Of a stretch of DNA of 64,000 nucleotides, positions 6,104-48,600 are shown one piece after another. Position numbers and translations under genes: made by a program. The stretch covers positions 64,001-128,000 of the forward strand of contig JAWLBL010000006.1 of NCBI GenBank assembly GCA_041687695.1, given 5' to 3'. This DNA is from Myxococcota bacterium (GTDB taxonomy: Bacteria; Myxococcota_A; UBA9042; PHBI01; JAWLBL01). The notes below the pieces were generated by a model, which was not told where the DNA came from, searched no databases, and saw only the letters and a program-made list of their open reading frames with translations. The stretch's first letter is position 1. Every line of letters starts with the position of its first letter.

Positions 6104-6564
6104 GAGATGGCCAGCAGCTCCGAGCCCACGGTGAGGACGAGCACGAGGCGGACGATGACGGAGACGGTCATCAGGGTGGCGATGGTCTCGACGACCCCCT
6201 GGCGGTCGAGCCAGATGGCGATGAGGCCGGGGATGATGAAGCCGATGACCTGGTAGACCTCGCCGAAGGCGCCTTCGGTGCCTGCGAAGAGGCTGCGCAG
6301 GCCGATGCCGACCAGGTAGCCGGTCAGGATCATCAGGGCGGTGCGGCGGCGGCCGTAGAGGATGACGATGGGCGACAGCAGGCGCACGAAGGCGAAGGTG
6401 ATGAAGCCGGCCAGCACGGTCAGCGCGATGTCGACCGGCTGCGTGAGGCTGAGCGCCATGTAGCCGGGCACGACCATGCCGCCCGGCGCGACGCCGAAGA
6501 CTTCCGAGAAGATGAGGCTGACGGCGAGGCCGAGGCCGATGGCGACGGGGAGGAGCTCGATCAT
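6100..6564 (-). CDS. pgsC: Poly-gamma-glutamate biosynthesis membrane protein PgsC/CapC
   Basis: C-terminal part of ORF 6100..7749: MIELLPVAIGLG...PGGMVVPGYMAL...ILYGRRR...IGFIIPGLIA. ATGA overlap with the pgsB stop. Confidence 0.9.
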   Translation of the reverse strand: MIELLPVAIGLGLAVSLIFSEVFGVAPGGMVVPGYMALSLTQPVDIALTVLAGFITFAFVRLLSPIVILYGRRRTALMILTGYLVGIGLRSLFAGTEGAFGEVYQVIGFIIPGLIAIWLDRQGVVETIATLMTVSVIVRLVLVLTVGSELLAIS

Positions 6565-7820
6565 GCGGCGGCGTCCTTCGAGGATGCGTCCGAGGCGTCT
6601 TGGGAGGCCCGCTGCGAGGGGGCGCTCGGGGAGAGGATGCTGCGGTTGCGGAAGTAGGCGACCAGATCGAGGCCCTGGCCGCCGATGTTGCCCATGCCGA
6701 CGATGAGGGCGGAGCGGCCCGACAGGCCGATGAGGGTCTCGAAGATCTGGTCGGTCGAGTAGTCGTCGACGTGGTGGACGCGGCTCGAGTCGAGGCCGCT
6801 CGGGACGCCGGCCTTGGCGAAGATGTAGGTGCCGCTGCCCATCAGGACGAGCTCGTCGGCCTGCTGCCACTTGGGGTAGGCCTCGCCGAGCTGGATGGAG
6901 CGGTCGGGGCGGTCGGCGCGGCAGTTGAAGACGGCGATGCGGCGGTCGACGTCGGGGAAGCGCTCGATGGCGATGTCCCAGACGCGCTCGGTCGACTCGG
7001 GGTCGTTGGCGGCGAAGGCGTTGACGAAGGTGATGCGCCGCCCGAAGAAGTCGACGTCGTAGGTCATCATGGCGCCGGGGTCGGGCGTGGCCTCCCACAT
7101 GCCGCGCAGCGCGGTGGCGCGGTCGACCCCGACGGAGGCGCAGATCTTCAGGGCGAGCGCGACGTTCTCGGCGTGCTCGATGTAGCGGAAGCCGGCGAGG
7201 TCCTCGGCGGAGATGGCCTGGACCTCCTCGAGGGTGATGCCGACGCACTTGGAGCCGCGGTCGGCGGCCGACATCTGGAAGACGTCGAGGTGGTCGCGCT
7301 CGGCCGTGTACAGGGTCTGCCCGTGCGGGGTCATGCCGGCCAGGGCCAGGGCCACATCGCGCTCGGTCGGCCCCATGACGTCGAGGTGGTCGGGGCGGGC
7401 GTTGGTGATGACGCCGTGGGTGGCGCGCACGATGCGCGCCTCGCTGAGCCACTGCAGGTAGGGCTGCAGGGCCATGCACTCGATGACCAGCGCCTGCGCC
7501 TTGTAGGCGTTGGCGGCCGAGACGATGCGCAGCTGCTCGATGATGTTGGCGCGCGCCGGGCGGAAGACCGGGTACTCGCGCCCGTCGGGCATGATCATGC
7601 GGGGCAGGGTGCCGGTCGTCTTGGCGCAGGTGGTGACGCCGCCGGCGCGCAGGCCCGCGGCGATGAGCCGCGTGACGCTGGATTTCCCGCGCGTGCCGTT
7701 GACGTGCACCCGGATGGGGATCCTGGCCAGGCGCTTTCGGTGCAGCCACAGCTCGATCGCGCCCAGCGCCACGATGAGCACGGTCGTCGCGGAGAGCAGC
7801 ACGATGTACCAGGTGTCCAA
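6561..7820 (-). CDS. pgsB: Poly-gamma-glutamate synthase PgsB/CapB (Mur-ligase-like)
   Basis: VHVNGTRGKSSVTRLIAAGL P-loop, AKTTGT, VIECMALQP, DHLDVMGPT, FAANDPEST; TTG start. Confidence 0.92.
   Translation of the reverse strand: MDTWYIVLLSATTVLIVALGAIELWLHRKRLARIPIRVHVNGTRGKSSVTRLIAAGLRAGGVTTCAKTTGTLPRMIMPDGREYPVFRPARANIIEQLRIVSAANAYKAQALVIECMALQPYLQWLSEARIVRATHGVITNARPDHLDVMGPTERDVALALAGMTPHGQTLYTAERDHLDVFQMSAADRGSKCVGITLEEVQAISAEDLAGFRYIEHAENVALALKICASVGVDRATALRGMWEATPDPGAMMTYDVDFFGRRITFVNAFAANDPESTERVWDIAIERFPDVDRRIAVFNCRADRPDRSIQLGEAYPKWQQADELVLMGSGTYIFAKAGVPSGLDSSRVHHVDDYSTDQIFETLIGLSGRSALIVGMGNIGGQGLDLVAYFRNRSILSPSAPSQRASQDASDASSKDAAA

Positions 7821-9028: not shown

Positions 9029-9032
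<4 letters not shown>
8055..9032 (-). CDS. Succinylglutamate desuccinylase/aspartoacylase family (M14-like) metallo-amidohydrolase
   Basis: C-terminal part of ORF 8055..10652: [29 protein letters not shown] and a C-terminal biotinyl-like segment. Probable TTG start overlapping the upstream TGA. Confidence 0.85.
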
Positions 9033-10585
<1,553 letters not shown>

Positions 10586-10698
10586 GTCTGCGGGAACCTC
10601 GAAGGGGGCGCGTGGTGCGTCGAGCATGACCACGGCGCCGCGGCCGCGGCAAGGCCCGGGCCGGGGGAGCGGGTTACGCGGGTGGGATGGGGGATGAG

Positions 10699-10776
10699 GA
10701 GGGGCAGGGGAGAGGGGCAGGGGAGAGGGGCAGGGGAGAGGGGCAGGGGAGAGGGGCAGGGGAGAGGGGCAGGGGA
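10699..10776 (+). repeat. (GAGGGGCAGGGGA)x6 G-rich tandem repeat abutting the left end of element 1
   Basis: Direct reading; 13-bp unit. Confidence 0.9.
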
Positions 10777-10782
10777 GCGGGA

Positions 10783-11070
10783 GAGGCGCGGTAGCCTCCG
10801 CTTCGGCCGGCCTCAATGGCTTTGTCCCCCTTGGCCGGCCTGGTCGGCCGGCCAATTCCTCGCGGACGACAAAGCCATTGACCCCGGCCTACGCTGCGGC
10901 TGGGGGGCTGATATCGGCCCGGAAGGGGGCCTTCCGGGCCGCTTCGCGTCCCGGCGCGGGCACTGGCGGCGGGTGCTGGGGAGGGCGGCTGTTCGGGGCT
11001 TCCAGGGGGCCGGAGCGGTGCTTGGTCGCGTGGGCCTGGGGTGGGGTGTAGAATTAAACAACCGTGTGAT
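10783..11070 (+). repeat. Left terminal module of element 1 (structured; possible ncRNA or ssDNA hairpin)
   Basis: Nested stems TCAATGGCTTTGTC/GACAAAGCCATTGA, TTGGCCGGCC/GGCCGGCCAA and CGGCCCGGAAGG/CCTTCCGGGCCG. Homologous to 28281-28564 and to the reverse complement of 13711-13990. Confidence 0.85.
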
Positions 11071-11337
11071 TAGTCGTCCCGGGGCGGAAGCTGGCCGTCG
11101 TCCCGGGGCGGAAGGGCGCGGGTCGTCGTCCCGGGGCGCGAGCGCGCGGGTCGTCGTCCCGGGGCGGGAGCGCGCGGGTCGTCGTCCCGGGGCGCGAGCG
11201 CGCGGGTCGTCGTCCCGGGGCGGAAGCGCGCGGGCCGTCGTCCCGGGGCGGAAGGGCGCGGGTCGTCGTCCCGGGGCGCGAGCGCGCGGGTCGTCGTCCC
11301 GGGGCGGGAGCGCGCGGGTCGTCGTCCCGGGGCGGAG
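11071..11337 (-). repeat. Tandem array A: 10 units, mostly 28-bp period, core GTCGTCGTCCCGGGGCG(G/C)(A/G)AG
   Basis: Counted by eye; begins immediately after the HNH stop codon. Confidence 0.92.
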
Positions 11338-11338
11338 G

Positions 11339-12619
11339 TCACCCACGAGCTGCTCGCCCGGACTGAAGGTCGGCGCTTCCGTCCCGGGGCGGAACGGACC
11401 CGGCCCGCCGTTCGCCGATCTTCCGCGCGACGACGCGAGCCCCCAGCTCCTGGCGGGCGATGAGCAGGTTGTGGGCCTGACAGACGACCCGGATGTTGTC
11501 GACCGAGTGAGCGCCGCCCCTGGCGAAGGCCTCATCGTGGTGCAGCTCCAGCCGGCGCGTCTCGGTGCACCGCCCTCCCGGGCCCTCATAGGTGCACCGC
11601 AGCCCGTCCCGCTCGACCACGGCCCGCTTCACCTCGGCCGGGATGGCACGGCTGCGTTCCGTCACCTCGGCCACCGGCTCGCTCGCCGCGGCCTCGACCG
11701 ACTCGCCGGCCATGGCCAGCCTCTCGGTCGACTCATCGGCCATGGCCGCGCTCTCGACCGACTCTCCGGCCACGGCCACGCTCTCGGCCGACTCGCCGGC
11801 CACGGCCACGCTCTCGGCCGACTCGCCGGCCACGGCCACGCTCTCGGCCGGCTGGGGCGCCTTCACGACGACCTTCTTCACCCGCCGCTTGGCCCCGATC
11901 CCGAACCGCTGCTTCTTCTTCGCGGCCAGGAAGACGTCCAGGGCCATCTCCAACAAGGCCTCGTAGTCCCCGGACGCGACCTGATGGCCCGCCAGCGCCA
12001 TCGCCTCCTCGAGCTTGGCCGCTACCCGCGCGCCCACTGTCACCTGGACCCGGTACCGGGTCTCTGACAGCGGCTCGACCCGGTGCTTCGGCTTCGGCTG
12101 CTCCAGCGTCAGCTCGGCCACCTCCCGCGGTGCGCCCCGCTTCGCCGCCTCGACCCGCGCTCCGCCCCGGGACGGCGGCAACCGGAACACCCGCGCCGGC
12201 ACGTCCGGCCGCGGCGACCACTTGGCTACGAGCTCGGCCAGCTCGCGCTTGCTCTTCCCGGCCGCCTCGGCCAGCCGCTCGCCGGCGTCCTCGTCGCTCA
12301 GGTGAGGTCCGATGACCCGCACCCCGCTCAGGCTCAGCCGTCCGTCGGCCAACATGGCGCCCATCTCGGGCCACCGCCGCACCCACCCGACGGCCTTCAC
12401 ATAGTTGTAGGCCTTGTCCTCACCAAAGCCCCACCGCGTCCGGCACCACTCGAACAGCGACGGGCTGCCGTCCCGAAGGTGAAGCTCCCTGGCCTCGACC
12501 TCGGCCAGATGGACGACCAGGTTGGCCGTCGTCCGCCGCTCCAGATCCACCAGCTCACCGACCCGCCCCAGCAGCCCCTCGTCGGACAACTTCCCCAGCA
12601 ACTCCAAGCCCTTGCTCAT
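11339..12619 (-). CDS. HNH endonuclease with N-terminal helical (DUF222-like) domain, copy 1, 426 aa
   Basis: MSKGLELLGKLSDEGLL...ERRTTANLVVHLAEVEARELHL; C-terminal RAIPAEVKRAVVERDGLRCTY...RC...LELHH...GGAHSVDNIRVVCQAHN. GGGAGG RBS before the ATG at 12619. Confidence 0.9.
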   Translation of the reverse strand: MSKGLELLGKLSDEGLLGRVGELVDLERRTTANLVVHLAEVEARELHLRDGSPSLFEWCRTRWGFGEDKAYNYVKAVGWVRRWPEMGAMLADGRLSLSGVRVIGPHLSDEDAGERLAEAAGKSKRELAELVAKWSPRPDVPARVFRLPPSRGGARVEAAKRGAPREVAELTLEQPKPKHRVEPLSETRYRVQVTVGARVAAKLEEAMALAGHQVASGDYEALLEMALDVFLAAKKKQRFGIGAKRRVKKVVVKAPQPAESVAVAGESAESVAVAGESAESVAVAGESVESAAMADESTERLAMAGESVEAAASEPVAEVTERSRAIPAEVKRAVVERDGLRCTYEGPGGRCTETRRLELHHDEAFARGGAHSVDNIRVVCQAHNLLIARQELGARVVARKIGERRAGSVPPRDGSADLQSGRAARG

Positions 12620-12870
12620 CCCGCAGCCCTCCCAATCGAGGCCTGCAGCATAGCACGGGGGTCCCAATCCCCTCGGAGCACCCCCTGGACGGCCGTTCAG
12701 GCCTCTCGGACGACCCGCGACGACCCTCACCCCTGATCAGCGCGTTGTGGAGCCTGGAAGAGGCCTCCCAGCCCCTCCACCTGGCCGACCGCGGACTTCC
12801 AAAATCGGGCCCCCAAAACCCGTCAACAACTATTCGCCGTCTCGACCCGTCCACATGTCGATTTCTCGTC

Positions 12871-13710
12871 CCGACTTCCGCCCCGGGACGACGACCCGCC
12901 CCGGGACGACGACCGGCGCGCTTCCGCCCCGGGACGACGACCGGCGCGCTTCCGCCCCGGGACGACGACCGACTTCCGCCCGGGACGACGACCGACTTCC
13001 GCCCCGGGACGACGAGCGACTTCCGCCCCGGGACGACGAGCGACTTCCGCCCCGGGACGACGAGCGACTTCCGCCCCGGGACGACGAGCGACTTCCGCCC
13101 CGGGACGACGACCCGCGCTTCCGCCCCGGGACGACTGCTGGGTTCCGCCCCGGGACGACGACCGGCGCGCTTCCGCCCCGGGACGACGACCGGCGCGATT
13201 CCGCCCCGGGACGACGACCGGCGCGATTCCGCCCCGGGACGACGACCACCGCGCTTGCGCCCCGGGACGACGACCGACTTCCGCCCCGGGACGACGACCG
13301 GCAGGCTTCCGCCCCGGGATGACGACCGACTTCCGCCCCGGGACGACGACCGGCGCGCTTACGCCCCGGGACGACGACCCGCGCTTCCGCCCCGGGACGA
13401 CGACAGGCAGGCTTACGCCCCGGGACGACGACCCGCGATTCCGCCCCGGGACGACGACCCGCGATTCCGCCCCGGGACGACGACCGGCGCGCTTACGCCC
13501 CGGGACGACGACCCGCGCTTCCGCCCCGGGACGACGACCGGCAGGCTTCCGCCCCGGGACGACGACCGACTTCCGCCCCGGGACGACGACCGACTTCCGC
13601 CCCGGGACGACGACCGACTTCCGCCCCGGGACGACGAGCGACTTCCGCCCCGGGACGACGAGCGACTTCCGCCCCGGGACGACGAGCGACTTCCGCCCCG
13701 GGACGACTAA
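12871..13710 (+). repeat. Tandem array B: ~33 units of TTCCGCCCCGGGACGACGA(C/G), mostly 24/26/28-bp periods
   Basis: Counted by eye; linkers CGAC, CCGCGC, CGGCGCGC, CGGCAGGC and others; terminal unit GGGACGACTAAT mirrors the outer unit of array A. Confidence 0.92.
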
Positions 13711-13990
13711 TTGCGCGGCCGTTTAATTACCAACCCCACCCCAGGCCCAATCGACCAAGCACGACCAGCCGCTGGAACTCCCGCACACCCGCCTCCCCCC
13801 AGCACCCGCCGCCAGTGCCCGCGTCGGGACGCGAAGCGGCCCGGAAGGCCCCCTTCCGGGCCGATATTGGCCCCCCAGCCGTCCGCTACGGCCGGGGTCA
13901 AGGGCTTTGTCGTCCGCGAGGAATTGGCCGGCCGCCAGGTCGGCCAAGGGGGACAAAGCCCTTGATGCCGGCCGTAGCGGAGGCTACCGC
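13711..13990 (-). repeat. Right terminal module of element 1 (inverted homologue of the left module)
   Basis: Reverse complement reads GCGGTAGCCTCCGCTACGGCCGGCATCAAGGGCTTTGTC...GACAAAGCCCTTGACCCCGGCCGTAGCGGA...; followed by a C-rich tract at 13991-14068. Confidence 0.88.
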
Positions 13991-14107
13991 ACCCCCACCC
14001 ACCCACCCCCAACCCCCCCACCCACCCCCAACCCCCATCCCCCAACCCCGCCCACCCCCCAACCCACCGTGGCCCCCAACCGCCACTTGCGATAGCCTCC
14101 CCCCGCC

Positions 14108-29094: not shown

Positions 29095-30261
29095 ATGAGC
29101 AAGGGCTTGGAGTTGCTGGGGAAGTTGTCCGACGAGCGGCTGCTGGGGCGGGTAGGTGAGCTGGTCGATCTGGAGCGGCGGACGACGGCCAACCTGGTCG
29201 TCCATCTGGCCGAGGTCGAGGCCAGGGAGCTGCACCTTCGGGACGGCAGCCCGTCGCTGTTCGAGTGGTGCCGGACGCGGTGGGGCTTTGGTGAGGACAA
29301 GGCCTACAACTACGTGAAGGCCGTCGGGTGGGTGCGGCGGTGGCCCGAGATGGGCGCCATGTTGGCCGACGGGCGGCTGAGCCTGAGCGGGGTGCGGGTC
29401 ATCGGACCTCACCTGAGCGACGAGGACGCCGGCGAGCGGCTGGCCGAGGCGGCCGGGAAGAGCAAGCGCGAGCTGGCCGAGCTCGTAGCCAAGTGGTCGC
29501 CGCGGCCGGACGTGCCGGCGCGGGTGTTCCGGTTGCCGCCGTCCCGGGGCGGAGCGCGGGCCGAGGCGCCGAAGCAGGCGAAGGGCGACGCGCAGGGGAC
29601 GACGGAGCTGACCTTGGAGCGTCCGAAGCCGCAGCATCGGGTCGAGCCGCTGTCAGAGACTCGGTATCGGGTCCAGGTGACCGTGGGCGCGCGGGTGGCG
29701 GCGAAGCTCGAGGAGGCGATGGCGCTGGCCGGTCACCAGGTCGCGTCGGGGGACTACGAGACCTTGTTGGAGATGGCGCTGGACGTCTTCCTGGCCGCCA
29801 AGAAGAAGCAGCGGTTCGGTCTCGGTGCCAAGCGGCGAGTGAAGAAGGCCGTCGCCAAGGCGCCCGAGTCGGCCGAGAGCGTGGCCATGGCCGGCGAGTC
29901 GGTCGAGGCCGCGGCGAGCGAGGCGGCAGTGGAGGTGACCGACCGCAGCCGTGCCATCCCGGCCGAGGTGAAGCGGGCCGTGGTCGAGCGGGACGGGCTG
30001 CGGTGCACCTACGAGGGCCCGGGAGGGCGGTGCACCGAGACGCGCCGGCTGGAGCTGCACCACGAGGAGGCGTTTGCCAGGGGCGGCGAGCACTCGGTCG
30101 ACAACCTTCGGGTCGTCTGTCAGGCCCACAACCTGCTCATCGCCCGGCAGGAGCTGGGGGCCGGGTTCATGGCCCGCAAGGTCGGAGCGCGCCGTTCGAG
30201 GGCGCTTCCGCCCCGGGGCGGAAGGGTCGACGGTCAGTCCGGGCGAGCAGCTCGTGGGTGA
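29095..30261 (+). CDS. HNH endonuclease with N-terminal helical (DUF222-like) domain, copy 2, 388 aa
   Basis: Near-identical to copy 1 outside two linkers; HH...N...C..HN motif intact. Confidence 0.9.
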   Translation: MSKGLELLGKLSDERLLGRVGELVDLERRTTANLVVHLAEVEARELHLRDGSPSLFEWCRTRWGFGEDKAYNYVKAVGWVRRWPEMGAMLADGRLSLSGVRVIGPHLSDEDAGERLAEAAGKSKRELAELVAKWSPRPDVPARVFRLPPSRGGARAEAPKQAKGDAQGTTELTLERPKPQHRVEPLSETRYRVQVTVGARVAAKLEEAMALAGHQVASGDYETLLEMALDVFLAAKKKQRFGLGAKRRVKKAVAKAPESAESVAMAGESVEAAASEAAVEVTDRSRAIPAEVKRAVVERDGLRCTYEGPGGRCTETRRLELHHEEAFARGGEHSVDNLRVVCQAHNLLIARQELGAGFMARKVGARRSRALPPRGGRVDGQSGRAARG

Positions 30262-36986: not shown

Positions 36987-38569
36987 TCGAGGCAGTCGAC
37001 GACGTCGACCTGGTACTGGATGGTCTGGGCGAGGCCGGTGACGGTCACGTCGTAGACCATGCCCGCCTCCATCTTCCAGCCGGAGGGCTTGAAGGACAGG
37101 GCGTACTTGCTGCCGTAGTTGGCGGCGAGGACGGTCTTGGTGACGGGCAGGGCGACGCCGTCGGCGCTGACCGCGACCTGGGCCTTGGTCAGGTCGATGG
37201 AGTCGCTCTGGATGGACCAGGCGGTCTTGTCGAGGGTGCTCCAGCCGGCCGCGTTGGCCTCGATGGGGAAGGGGCCGGGCGGCGGCCAGGCGACCCAGTC
37301 GGCGCCGGCCTTGCCCGAGCCGGACAGGACCCACATGCACGAGTAGTCGTCGGTCGAGCCGAGGCCGATGGGGCCCAGGGCGTTCGACAGGATCCAGCGG
37401 CGGTGACCGAGGGTGGTCGCGTTGCCCGGGTCGACCATGTACAGGTCGACGGCGATGACGCCGGGGGTGGTGGCGATGTTGCTCTTGCCGGCGGCGGCTG
37501 CGCCCGTGCTGGAGTAGCACTTCCAGCTGCTGGGCGGCGTGTGGGTGATGGTGCCGTTGGCGTGCATCATCAGGGCGCACTGCTGGGCGGCGTCGTTGCG
37601 GGTCGGGTCGGTGGTGACCGGCGGCAGGCCGGCGAGCCAGCGGAACAGGTTGACCTGGCGCAGGGCGGTGTCGCGGGCGGAAGGGGAGATGGCGCCGGCG
37701 TTGCAGGTGGTGGCGCTGCCGGACCAGGTGCCCTCGTCGAGGTCGGCGCGGTCGGCGTTCCAGCGGGCGCACATGGCGGCGGCGGGGTCGTCGTCCGGGG
37801 CGGGGCCGGGGTCGGGCGAGGCGTCGGCGGTGGCGTCGGCGTCGGGGCCGGTGTCCACGGACATGTCCAGGGAGACGTCGGTGGTGTCGGAGGCCGTGTC
37901 GGAGGCCGTGTCGGAGGCCGTGTCGGTGGCCGTGTCGGTGGCCGTGTCCTTGGCCGTGTCCGAGGCGGTGTCGGTGGCCGTGTCGGTGGCCGTGTCTGTA
38001 GCCGTGTCCGTGGCCGTGTCGGTCGCCGTGTCCACGGCCGTGTCCGGAGCTGTGTCGGGGGCCGTGTCCGAGGCCGCCGAATCATTCGCATCTTCGTCGC
38101 GCGGGTCGAAAGCGTCGGTGGCGTGCGAATCGCTCTCGCGAGCGTCGCCATGGTCATTCGCAGATTGCGAATCGCCGTGGCGAGCGTCGCCATCATCATT
38201 CGCAATCTGCGAATCGCCGTGGCGAGCGTCGCCATGGTCATTCGCAATCTGCGAATCGCCGTGGCGAGCGTCGTCATGGTCATTCGCAATCTGCGAATCG
38301 CCGTGGCGAGCGTCGCCATCGTCATTCGCAATCTGCGAATCGCCCGCGCGAGTGTCGCCATCGTCATTCGCGTCCCGCGCGTCGCCTTCGCGGGTGTCGA
38401 CAGCGTCGTCGGAGGCGCTCGAGTCGGGCTCGGGGAGGGCGTCGGGGTCGCCGGGGGGGAGCTCGGTCGCCTTGGTGTCGGCGGTCGCGTCGGCGAGGGG
38501 GAGGGGGGGCTCGGTGTTGCAGCCGGCGAGGGCCGCGAGGAGGGTCAGCGCAAGGGCGCGCATCGGCAT
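36980..38569 (-). CDS. CAP/SCP-domain lipoprotein with repetitive acidic linker
   Basis: Lipobox LAGC; VNLFRWLAGL, AQQCALMM, THTPP, SNIA, LGHRRWIL. Confidence 0.85.
   Translation of the reverse strand: MPMRALALTLLAALAGCNTEPPLPLADATADTKATELPPGDPDALPEPDSSASDDAVDTREGDARDANDDGDTRAGDSQIANDDGDARHGDSQIANDHDDARHGDSQIANDHGDARHGDSQIANDDGDARHGDSQSANDHGDARESDSHATDAFDPRDEDANDSAASDTAPDTAPDTAVDTATDTATDTATDTATDTATDTASDTAKDTATDTATDTASDTASDTASDTTDVSLDMSVDTGPDADATADASPDPGPAPDDDPAAAMCARWNADRADLDEGTWSGSATTCNAGAISPSARDTALRQVNLFRWLAGLPPVTTDPTRNDAAQQCALMMHANGTITHTPPSSWKCYSSTGAAAAGKSNIATTPGVIAVDLYMVDPGNATTLGHRRWILSNALGPIGLGSTDDYSCMWVLSGSGKAGADWVAWPPPGPFPIEANAAGWSTLDKTAWSIQSDSIDLTKAQVAVSADGVALPVTKTVLAANYGSKYALSFKPSGWKMEAGMVYDVTVTGLAQTIQYQVDVVDCLDY
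37880..38075 (-). repeat. 12-bp coding tandem repeat (DTAT/DTAS)n
   Basis: GCCGTGTCGGTG-type units. Confidence 0.85.
38124..38371. repeat. 42-bp palindromic tandem repeat, 5 full units plus partial flanking units, in frame
   Basis: Units start at 38142, 38184, 38226, 38268 and 38310; consensus TCGCCATGG-TC-ATTCGCA-ATC-TGCGAAT-CG-CCGTGGCGA. Confidence 0.9.
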
Positions 38570-45641: not shown

Positions 45642-48600
45642 TCAGAGCGAGAAGATCATCGAGTTGCCGGTCGAGACCTCGAGCACGACCAGCCCCATCC
45701 CGTCGTGGGAGAAGTAGACGCGGTCGGCGTCGTCGGGGGCGAACCAGAAGCCGCCGTAGTTCTGCGACAGGCCCGAGTCGAGCGAGCCCGAGATGCAGGC
45801 GAGGCCGGGGTCGGCGGGGGCGTCGTTGCACGACAGGGCCACGCGCGCCGCGGTCGCCGGGTCGACCAGGACGACCTGGGTGCCGCCCTGGCGGCCGACG
45901 GTCCAGTAGCGGGCGCGGGCGGCGTCCCACTTCACCCAGCGGTGGCCGACGCCGGACGAGCCGGTGGGGCCGGACCCGAGCGGGTTGGCGGTCGAGGCGC
46001 CCGTGAGGCGGGCGCGGTCGCCGGTGGCCAGATCGATGGCGTACAGGGTCAGGTCGAAGGCGTTGAGGGCGAGCAGCTTGCCGTCGTGCAGCCCGAAGCC
46101 GGTGAGGACGCCCGAGGTGAAGGCCCAGCCGGCGCCGACCGAGGTGCCGGCCATGGCGTTGCCGGCCATGGTGCCCGCGCGGGTGACGTACTGGCAGGTC
46201 TGCTGGGCGCCCGTGCCGCTGATGCGGATGACGCCCAGGCCTTCGCCGACGGGCGAGGTGTTGGAGAAGCCCAGGTAGAAGGCCCCGGCCGCGTCGATCG
46301 CGAAGCCGTCGGCGCGGGTCTGGACCGACTTGCCGTCGCGGCCGTTGTCGCAGACCGCGAAGCCGGCGCCGTCGCGCTGCCACACCAGGGTGCGGTCGCC
46401 GGTGGCCGGGTCGACGGCGACGATCTCGCCCATCACGTTGGTCCCGGACCAGACGTACAGCGTGCCGTCGGGGCCCCGCTGCACGTCGATGACGTTGGTC
46501 AGGCGGTGGCCGGCGCCGACCTCGGCCGGGGCGCCGCCCGCGGAGAGGTGCTCGCCCGACAGGACGGTGCGGTCGCCGGTGGCGAGGTCGAAGGCCATGA
46601 CGAAGCCGGCGTCGGGGTTGGCGGCGCTGGACCAGGCCACGGCCGCGACGATCTTGCCCTGCGCGGCGTCGAGGAAGCCGCCGAGGAGGGTCGCCTGCGG
46701 GTGGGCGCCGACCCGGACGCCCGCGCCGACGGTCACGCCGGACTCCGAGATGTAGGCCTCGTAGGGGCGCCAGCACACGGGCAGGCCGCCGGTCAGGGCG
46801 CGGTTGGTGAGGCAGCGGCAGTCGGCGTCGAGGGCCGTCGGCTCGGAGACGAACTGCTCGAAGACGCACGAGTCCGCGTAGTAGGGGCTGTCCGGGTCGC
46901 CGACCGAGCTGGTGCAGGTCGCGCCGTCGCCGTAGTCGTAGCAGACCAGGCCTTCGGCGCAGGCCTCGGCCACGCCGTCGACTACGCCGCAGCTGTTGAC
47001 GGTCACGACGGCCGCGCCGCCCTCGGCCGTGGTGCCGCACTTGGTCGAGGTGGCCGGGGTGCAGGCGCCGCAGACCGGGGTGGCGCCGCTGTCGTCACAG
47101 GGCGCGCCCGGGTTGCAGGCGACGTCCAGCGTCGTCGCGCCGCAGCTGTCGACCCACACCACGTCGCCGTCCTCGCAGGCCTTGCCGACCTTGGGCGTGC
47201 AGGCGCACCAGAAGTCGACGTTGTTGGTCGTGCACTGGGCGCCGCCCGTGCAGGCCTCGGCCACGGTCCAGCTCTTGCCGTCGGCGGCGCACACGCGGAC
47301 CTCGCCGAGATCGGGGGCGCAGTAGGTCTTGCCCGCGTTGCACACGATGCCGACGTCGTCGACGCAGCTGGCGGTGCCGTCGGCCTCCTGGCAGATCTTG
47401 CCGCTGGCGCAGGTGGCGTAGACGAAGGTGCCGATGCCGGTGGTCTTGCACTGCAGCACCTGCTTCAGGTCCGCAGAGCACGTCCGCTCGTTCTTGGTGC
47501 ACAGGAGCGCCGGGTCGTCGACGCAGCTCGCGGTCGTGCCATCGGCCATGCAGATCTTGTTCGTGGCGCACAGCTGGAAGTTCTGGGTCGCCGTGCCCGT
47601 GGCGTTGCACTGCAGAACGTACTTCGCGTCCTCCGAGCACAGCTTGCTGTTCGGGACGCAGACCAGGCTCGGGTCGGGGACGCAGGCGGCGGTGCCGTCG
47701 CTCGCCTGGCAGATCTGGCCGACCGGGCAGGTCGCGGAGGGGGCGCTGCCCGAGCCGTCCTCCACGCACACGAGCACGCCCTTCGCGTCGTCCGAGCAGC
47801 TCAGCGCGCCCGGGTCGCAGACGCTGACGTCGACGCAGGTCGGCGTGCCGGCGACGGTCTGGCAGGCGTGCGTCAGGGGACAGGCCTCGACCGGGTCGGC
47901 CCCGGAGCCGTCGGCCCTGCACTGCTCGATCCCCTCGCCATCGGCCGCGCAGCTCAGCGCGCCCGGCGAGCACACGCTGACGTCCACGCAGACGGCCGCC
48001 TCGGCGACCAGCTGGCAGGCGTGGGTGATGGGGCAGGTCTCGGCCGGCTCGAAGCCGCTGCCGTCGCCCGCGCACACCCACACCGAGGCCCCGTCCTCGC
48101 CGCAGTCGGTCTCGCCCGGCGAGCACACCGGCGGCGTCACGTCGGCGTCGGCCGCGTCCTCGGCGACGTCGGGCTCGACCGCGTCGGGCCCGGAGACGTC
48201 CTCGACGGCGTCGGGCATCGAGACGTCCTCGACGGCGTCGGGCACCGAGACGTCCTCGACGGCGTCGGGCCCGGAGACGTCCTCGACGGCGTCGGGCTCG
48301 GAGGCGTCCTCGACGGCGTCAGGCTCGGAGGCGTCCTCGACGGCGTCGGGCACCGAGACGTCCTCGACGGCGTCGGGCACCGAGGCGTCCTCGACGGCGT
48401 CGGGCCCGGAGACGTCCTCGACGGCGTCGGACTCGACGACGTCCTCGACGGCGTCGGGGCCCGAGCCGTCCTGCTCGGCGTCGGGCCCGGCGGCATCCGC
48501 GGAGGCGTCCTGGCCGGCGTCGTCATCGGCGTCGTGGCCCACGTCCGGATCGCCGGTCACGTCGCCGCCGCCGCCGTCCTGGTGCGCGTCCTTGTCGCCG

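Follow-up and report, generated by a model that had tools for sequence, protein, structure and literature searches.

Known prokaryotic transposons are moved by DDE, HUH, serine or tyrosine enzymes, or by reverse transcriptases, and the REP/RAYT family combines a nuclease gene flanked by palindromes with gene-less derivatives, single-stranded DNA (ssDNA) hairpins and a GTAG-like terminal tag. Excerpts of published reports describe mycobacterial 13E12 members as bound by LexA and call them insertion elements (PMC3381160), say that 13E12 repeats "lack defined biological function" (PMC13061034), and describe a mycobacterial HNH nuclease that mediates cell death (PMC9416677). Here, we analyzed an element that lies in a 64,000-nucleotide stretch (the window) of a Myxococcota genome (G000; 7.97 Mb in 63 contigs, given C-numbers, with its gene copies given c-numbers) and encodes a 426-aa HNH protein, P0001. 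The ~3.2-kb layout claimed in the original prediction (a terminal module, 10 repeat units, the HNH gene, its leader, a reversed set of ~33 units and an inverted module) was confirmed at 10783-13990, window coordinates being given on the + strand throughout. Our results show that the element is a multicopy insertion, and we lean, with slightly better than even confidence, towards a selfish element of the insertion sequence (IS) type in which an HNH nickase and host repair replace the transposase. It has no published description in the literature searched on DUF222-HNH, 13E12 and REP/RAYT, where most subscription papers were out of reach.

The family of P0001 shares with the 13E12/DUF222-HNH repeats a homologous N-terminal region of ~113 residues (residues 20-132 align with the start of DUF222 with an hhalign probability of 97.1 and E 4.9e-11), a C-terminal HNH domain and dispersed multicopy genes, and most of its G000 leaders have an imperfect box of the SOS type. 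It differs from them in that P0001 has no PF02720 match and one of its 22 paralogs scores 21.2 bits against a cut-off of 24.4; PF02720 was found at E<=0.01 in 3 of 64 homologues, and other G000 genes pass the cut-off. Furthermore, the middle domain does not align, and the ten canonical DUF222-HNH loci compared all lack the palindrome and the TTGAC-TGnTA leader spacing described below. The family is a sister, not a member, of 13E12/DUF222-HNH. G000 also holds canonical DUF222-HNH genes with SOS-like boxes and no palindromes (C40:19432-20355 and C12:173568-174680). With REP, REPIN and BIME sequences and their RAYT (TnpA-REP) enzyme, the element shares the palindrome-flanked nuclease gene, gene-less derivatives, hairpins of the ssDNA type and a GTAG-like tag, but it has an HNH instead of a HUH/Y1 enzyme, 22 gene copies, a helix-turn-helix (HTH) of the double-stranded-operator type, modules of ~165-280 nt, and palindromes that are not dispersed away from the enzyme gene. 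None of the myxobacterial genus names searched for occurs in the text of PMC3733652. Like IS elements with terminal inverted repeats (TIRs) and miniature inverted-repeat transposable elements (MITEs), it has TIR-bounded autonomous and non-autonomous forms and intergenic insertions, whereas it has no DDE enzyme or target duplication, its right end is often missing and its ends are lineage-specific. Profile searches of the protein matched only HNH families and no DDE transposase. In its mode of operation the element is comparable to REP/RAYT or MITE systems, with HNH in the place of their enzyme.

Insertion, multicopy state and association with the repeated sites are shown by the distribution of the element. 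The 22 paralogs in G000 are scattered and fall into two clades, with about 50-93% pairwise identity. The HNH site is intact in all of them, with eight invariant positions (HNH and zinc residues) in 22/22, and dN/dS values of 0.10-0.22 in each of three domains indicate purifying selection; in one case, c11, the leader and the first 71 codons are missing. The repeats lie near the HNH genes and are not scattered: (i) 130 of 146 array cores, counted genome-wide as an exact 15-mer, lie within 1.5 kb either way of a paralog, a neighborhood that makes up 1.07% of G000, and of the remaining 16, 14 lie at contig ends; (ii) of the 42 modules in G000, with an outer edge sharp at GGTAGCC, a left one accompanies 19/19 evaluable copies and a complete right one 7/21; (iii) TIRs bound 7/21 evaluable copies and three gene-less derivatives with a module-array-module structure (on C3, C7 and C27); and (iv) tandem units of array plus module occur on C3 and C47. 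Empty sites in relatives were found at two loci. The neighbors of copy c8 are a gene of the threonine aldolase family and one for an Era-like GTPase. These two genes are adjacent on one contig in 13 of the 17 order-level relatives used for synteny (G011 and G009 among them), with the aldolase stop and era start codons overlapping or nearly touching in 6/6 relatives inspected; in G000 the gap is 3.15 kb, which contains the c8 element together with new tandem repeats to either side of it. For c13, 7/17 relatives have the two flanks adjacent; they are separated by a 2.5-kb gap in G009 and lie 37 kb apart in G011. In agreement with the original prediction, no target-site duplication was present at the six correctly bounded two-ended elements checked (C27 was left out). 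Of 34 outer flanks, 20 carry tandem halos, compared with 198 of 1811 among the intergenic controls, the G-rich one at 10699..10781 being typical of element ends, and G exceeds C on the inward strand in 34/34 outer flanks, against 41-55% of controls.

It is extremely improbable that this picture is an assembly artefact of a repeat-rich genome. Contigs often break in arrays, two copies contain N gaps and unit counts may be inexact, but gene, linker and spacers differ in every copy, matching proteins are encoded in another assembly, and an analogous layout with unrelated sequence is found in G011.

Further observations concern the surroundings of the copies in G000. The outer 40-70 nt of the module are partly re-duplicated just outside it at C9:2194-2333, C13:389-451, C33:12334-12447 and C2 near 186860, which would fit restarts at the terminal hairpin. 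Outside the left module of c13, a segment of 440 bp (L196:4644-5082) has a second occurrence at C39:34180-34860 with 87-88% identity. Directly outside the left modules at L013:20-480 (C1) and at C12 near 105300 there are 54-bp REP-like arrays with CCGGCTTCCAGCCGG, likely a separate REP family, and palindromic repeats of the GAGCCCGCGCGAGCGCGGGCACTCC type stand beside elements or single sites at C27:86560-86800, C42:42280-42370 and, on C44, downstream of c21.

The terminal modules carry the marks of a structure formed by ssDNA. The two modules of the window element are 87% identical over 289 nt, and the window module folds better than 200/200 shuffles (z -4.7). Covariation was seen at 11 of 48 pairs in 23 modules out of the 42; two-sided cells number 35 and one-sided cells 3, which 0/500 shuffles reach. 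Two-sided changes can, however, also be produced by template switching in the absence of selection. Of 40 module loops parsed, 35 have G..A on the outward strand, and module changes avoid G-U. Such G..A loops are described in stable DNA mini-hairpins in excerpts of two reports (PMC13037366, PMC3201870), and together with the pair changes they point to ssDNA rather than RNA. The AATTAAAC segments claimed to flank both arrays were found at 11052 and 13721. A copy's own left and right linkers are mutual best matches in 4/5 gene-bearing two-ended copies (rank 1 of 34; rank 4 in the fifth), so that one end was probably copied from, or converted by, the other; this self-match was not seen in 2 gene-less two-ended derivatives.

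Long ends of this kind were found in few lineages. The nine copies of G011 differ in their palindrome, and their module, ~230 nt long and unrelated to that of G000, is sited inside the palindromes; 8/9 are two-ended, 27/31 palindromes and 33/39 module motifs adjoin the nine copies, and in both G000 and G011 the G..A-loop strand runs from sites to module. Comparison loci from other genomes comprised 80 GTDB loci (Acidobacteriota, Eiseniibacteriota, Armatimonadota and others). Inverted repeats of at least 60 nt surround the gene in 2/67 loci from other genomes (G011 excluded) and direct repeats of at least 30 nt in 11/67; the module pattern gave 0 matches in metagenome contigs and four single one-mismatch matches in 106 other genomes of the class. 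Since long ends are rare elsewhere, the array-plus-TIR symmetry, which the original prediction took as the defining feature, is better seen as a lineage elaboration, in keeping also with the missing right modules of G000. The conserved core, which is also the minimal element, consists of the gene, single palindromes and a leader of fixed length, and the giant palindrome of the window is the fully elaborated form within one lineage. Two loci of G059 (L045 and L060) have paralog-specific palindromes and a gene bracketed by 41-47-bp direct repeats, which suggests insertion into an existing site in that lineage. Hairpin modules of the form TGTGGAAAA...TTTTCCAC, similar to those of G011, lie upstream of canonical DUF222-HNH genes in L222, L223 and L230.

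The arrays are amplified copies of a family-wide palindrome of ~20 bp, found across several phyla at both gene ends and within the gene. In G000, clade B units are perfect 16-bp palindromes and clade A units pair two half-site variants, and the type of the in-gene linker site tracks the protein clade. Elsewhere, by a rule fixed post hoc with the data already inspected, 42 of the 63 GTDB loci that are complete have the 20-bp palindrome AAC-N5-CCGG-N5-GTT at the 3' end, in the linker or upstream, compared with 3 of 97 control windows. The Noc site, given as TATTTCCC-GGGAAATA in an excerpt of PMC7383237, has the TCCCGGGA centre in common with the element palindrome. The sequence of the palindrome also appears to track residue 71 of the predicted recognition helix, which is suggestive. 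Over 56 rows (5 automatic half-sites dropped as doubtful, 6 set by eye, and a further G000 row, c17, swapped for clade representatives), an aromatic residue goes with T at half-site position 4 in 42/45, Ala or Ser with A in 6/6 and Cys with C in 3/4. Thus, of the proposed covariation between the repeat and the N-terminal domain, the trend at residue 71 stands but not its significance, since with kinship counted 3.3 independent pairs agree and 0 oppose (p 0.25). A second candidate, residue 68 with half-site position 8, was set aside, being confounded by kinship with 1-2 independent pairs.

The structure predicted for P0001 is compatible with palindrome binding. The AlphaFold2 model (pLDDT 81.6) has a helical N-domain, a beta-alpha-alpha middle domain and the HNH domain. 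The N-domain resembles the HTH of palindrome-binding ParB/Noc proteins in the model: its best natural structural matches are ParB-family DNA-binding domains (DBDs), namely the ParB DBD-parS complex 6s6h (Z 7.1, root-mean-square deviation (rmsd) 6.5, 117 aligned), KorB 8qa8 (Z 7.0, rmsd 3.6, 97 aligned) and Spo0J 1vz0 (Z 6.2, rmsd 2.9, 91 aligned). Six ParB-type entries (ParB, KorB twice, Spo0J, SopB and Pnob8 ParB) are in the top 50, with the best Z of 7.1 below the tool's chance band of 8, and Foldseek matches to ParB/Noc have E 0.4-1.3. A homodimer model of residues 1-250 scored 0.74 against 0.00 for the best control (contact agreement at least 51%, pLDDT at least 68), a mark reached by 20/30 solved homodimers and 1/23 monomers. 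The topology of the middle domain fits a ribbon-helix-helix (RHH), and residues 186-238 lie in the modelled dimer interface; the structure matches that we take to be RHH proteins score Z 3.3-4.1, tied with unrelated rows. No Foldseek match reached E<=0.001 with either the whole model or its middle domain; with the middle domain, VIA had nothing at Z>=5, and comparison with Pfam and PDB sequences gave weak rows only (3no7, E 0.16). The ESM Atlas matches were HNH clusters or clusters without a name, two of which have DUF222 on 12-23% of their members, and the homologue P0059 had no match among plasmids and phages. The likeness to ParB/Noc/KorB with their parS or Noc-binding sites (NBS) covers the HTH fold as modelled, a predicted dimer, 16-20-bp palindromes and an NBS-like centre, but no ParB CTPase domain or ParA partner was seen, the HTH is fused to a nuclease, and the sites travel with the gene.

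The leader contains two motifs, TTGAC and TGnTA, which resemble what we take to be the halves of a sigma-70 promoter, set 14 or 15 helical turns too far apart. TTGAC occurs upstream in 54/84 loci of other genomes (control 6/71), and TGnTA follows it at +168 to +172 in 43/55 distinct loci and 19/19 G000 copies, and at +180 to +184 in 9/9 G011 copies, whereas control TTGAC sites peak at +20, with 1/95 at 168-172. The sequence of the interval is not conserved and has a ~10-bp AT rhythm (p 0.001 by rotation, in a sample outside which G011 stood and whose members are kin and not independent). In our reading, the spacing would serve as a ruler or a phased loop. No deleted leader form with canonical spacing appeared among the top offsets of the 55 loci, and a scan of the element for sigma-70 promoters and terminators found none. 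Before the -10 motif there is an SOS-like box, and 19 of its 22 matches in G000 lie in these leaders; to judge by this motif, the element is probably SOS-induced. A perfect box in G000 precedes a gene that is presumably dnaE2. The M. xanthus SOS box is given as CTRHAMRYBYGTTCAGS in an excerpt of PMC9705874. A different tandem repeat, at C9:212300-212600, combines a perfect SOS-like box with a AGTCCCGGGACT palindrome.

An RNA-guided or RNA-associated nuclease of the IscB/omegaRNA or CRISPR kind, with the leader, module or array acting as RNA, had been offered as an alternative, and we now regard it as quite improbable. The leader is conserved in length and folds at z -2.4 as a single sequence, and there is weak similarity to IscB (HNH region only, 25.9 bits against a cut-off of 175). 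However, no Rfam match came near its gathering score, the consensus structure of the leader is weak (3/35 pairs two-sided), module changes avoid G-U and module loops are of the DNA type, and the spacers, with 12 types among 30, are short and reused, not unique and of guide length as in a CRISPR-like array. With IscB/HEARO and with free-standing HNH homing endonucleases the element shares the HNH catalytic module and a plausible selfish spread via host repair; unlike the former, it has no omegaRNA and its model has no RuvC region, and unlike the latter, it is inserted at numerous unrelated loci with its own sites preserved, whereas a homing element would disrupt them.

Several findings weigh against a selfish IS-like element. 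The closest pair of copies is 92.9% identical and no pair is near-identical, hence no sign of a recent burst, and another assembly encodes seven proteins that each match a different one of the copies at 90-99%, hence the copies are stable, not bursting. The empty sites come from order-level relatives, leaving the insertions undated and their ends imprecise, and synteny at three other loci, including the window element, was uninformative, the flanks of the window element giving no empty site. The SOS-like box is imperfect and outside G000 was found in one locus only, the fold scores of the N-domain are middling (Z <8, Foldseek E >0.1), and template switching, the post hoc palindrome rule and the kinship limits on residues 71 and 68 are to be added to this side. 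Besides, a host function would be equally compatible with copies that are intact, selected and diverged. Such a function could be that of an SOS nuclease or regulator retained by the host, with the palindromes as its autoregulatory operators, ordinary duplication as the source of the copies, and the modules as independent REP-like hairpins moved next to the gene in trans, for example by Y1/RAYT. We consider this unlikely, while giving it real weight: purifying selection and the lack of a recent burst agree with it, as do the cell-death role described for the mycobacterial nuclease, modules of unrelated sequence in G000 and G011 that most relatives lack, similar TGTGGAAAA hairpins before 3/10 canonical DUF222-HNH genes, and a module that begins with a GTAG-like tag in a genome with 11 Y1 transposase matches. 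Notwithstanding, the flanks of those Y1 matches share nothing with the module or arrays and none lies at a module, the modules are almost confined to the company of arrays, and insertion in a coupled aldolase-era junction, operators at both ends, gene-less derivatives and self-matching ends would be unexpected for a housekeeping gene.

Site clustering, empty sites, gene-less derivatives and a ParB/Noc-like N-domain in the model all speak for the original proposal of a selfish element whose protein binds the repeats. Binding to the palindromes is supported by these data, and we infer nicking and movement by the encoded protein. For such a selfish element, DNA damage would release LexA from the leader and permit expression; the protein would dimerise and bind the palindromes through its ParB-like HTH; the two leader motifs, a whole number of helical turns apart, might set a loop or a cutting register; and the HNH domain would nick near the bound sites. 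Strand displacement would then expose ssDNA, in which the terminal module could fold into G..A-capped hairpins that prime fold-back and template-switch synthesis by host repair. Fold-back synthesis would copy the unit into a new intergenic site, the second end would be built as an inverted copy of the first, and repeated nick-and-slip cycles could produce array expansion and tandem halos without target-site duplication. Alternatively, in an addiction or defence module the nuclease would be restrained by its own many sites and attack incoming DNA, or host DNA after site loss, with spread as a by-product. This is improbable: in its favor, the HNH site is intact everywhere, array amplification would increase titration capacity, and McrA-type and Cap5 nucleases are among the fold neighbors of P0001, but no partner gene, methylase or island context was seen among the 41 flanking proteins scanned, and the hairpin ends, fixed leader spacing and halos would be left unexplained.

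More tentatively, and at rather less than even confidence, the selfish element may represent a class of prokaryotic transposons spread across many phyla, with an HNH nickase as sole enzyme that would be aimed by a ParB-like HTH at co-evolving palindromic operators, and with a helically phased ~150-bp leader loop, ssDNA hairpins and copying by host repair. If so, the spread of the 13E12/DUF222-HNH repeats would be explained too, and an HNH-only element inserting at many unrelated sites would add a further transposition chemistry. For tests, the family offers natural mini-elements, an operator that is defined, a residue that may determine specificity, and a leader whose spacing is quantised, and a compact nickase with a natural protein-DNA code could serve as a tool.

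The features of the window element and of the second copy are given in Table 1. The second copy had been predicted to have the same layout; its left end is complete; the right end, however, extends no further than the AATT segment, the main hairpin block is missing, and an 8-mer x4 repeat follows.

Table 1. Coordinates of the element and its second copy in the window.
Position	Strand	Feature	Remarks
10699..10781	.	G-rich tandem repeat, 13-mer x6.4, directly outside module	halo
10783-11072		terminal module, gene 3' side	sharp edge GGTAGCC at 10790
10790..10955	+	conserved hairpin core of terminal module, ~165 nt	starts GGTAGCC
10956..11072	+	variable linker ending in AATTAAAC segment	best match is linker at the element's other end
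11073..11336	.	10-unit array of near-palindromic sites, core CGYCCCGGGRCG	mostly 28-bp period
11339..12619	-	open reading frame (ORF) of P0001, 426 aa	predicted ParB/Noc-like HTH ~26-138, possible RHH ~180-240, HNH ~325-393
12160..12177	.	palindromic site within coding linker	common to 21/22 paralogs
12620-12870		leader, about 250 nt
12647..12656	-	extended -10-like motif TGnTA
12685..12700	-	SOS (LexA)-box-like motif CTGAAC-N4-GTCCAG
12822..12834	-	TTGAC (-35-like) motif, AT-rich 5' side	171 bp to TGnTA in most G000 copies
about 12878..13707	.	33-unit array, opposite orientation	24-28-bp period, few spacer types, reused
13706..13988	-	terminal module, gene 5' side (linker and hairpin core)	inverted relative to 10790-11072; inverted module as a whole 13706-13990
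13990..14068	.	C-rich tandem halo outside module	G-rich read inward
28288..about 30637	+	second copy	complete left module, then array, leader, 388-aa ORF 29095-30261 and array of 9 units; right module truncated

Elsewhere in G000, a second recA appears in two pieces ~35 kb apart (C19:107865-108425 and 143717-143947). In the window, the left neighbor of the element (9029-10627, -) encodes a protein of 532 aa that is conserved in relatives and has no Pfam or NCBIfam match. The gene at 6561-7820 (-) encodes the poly-gamma-glutamate synthase PgsB, above the cut-off, and the reading frame next to it ends in what we take to be a PgsC-like peptide. Tandem arrays of a 12-mer x16, a 42-mer x6 and a 27-mer x12 at 37884-38371 and 48174-48490 are probably coding repeats.

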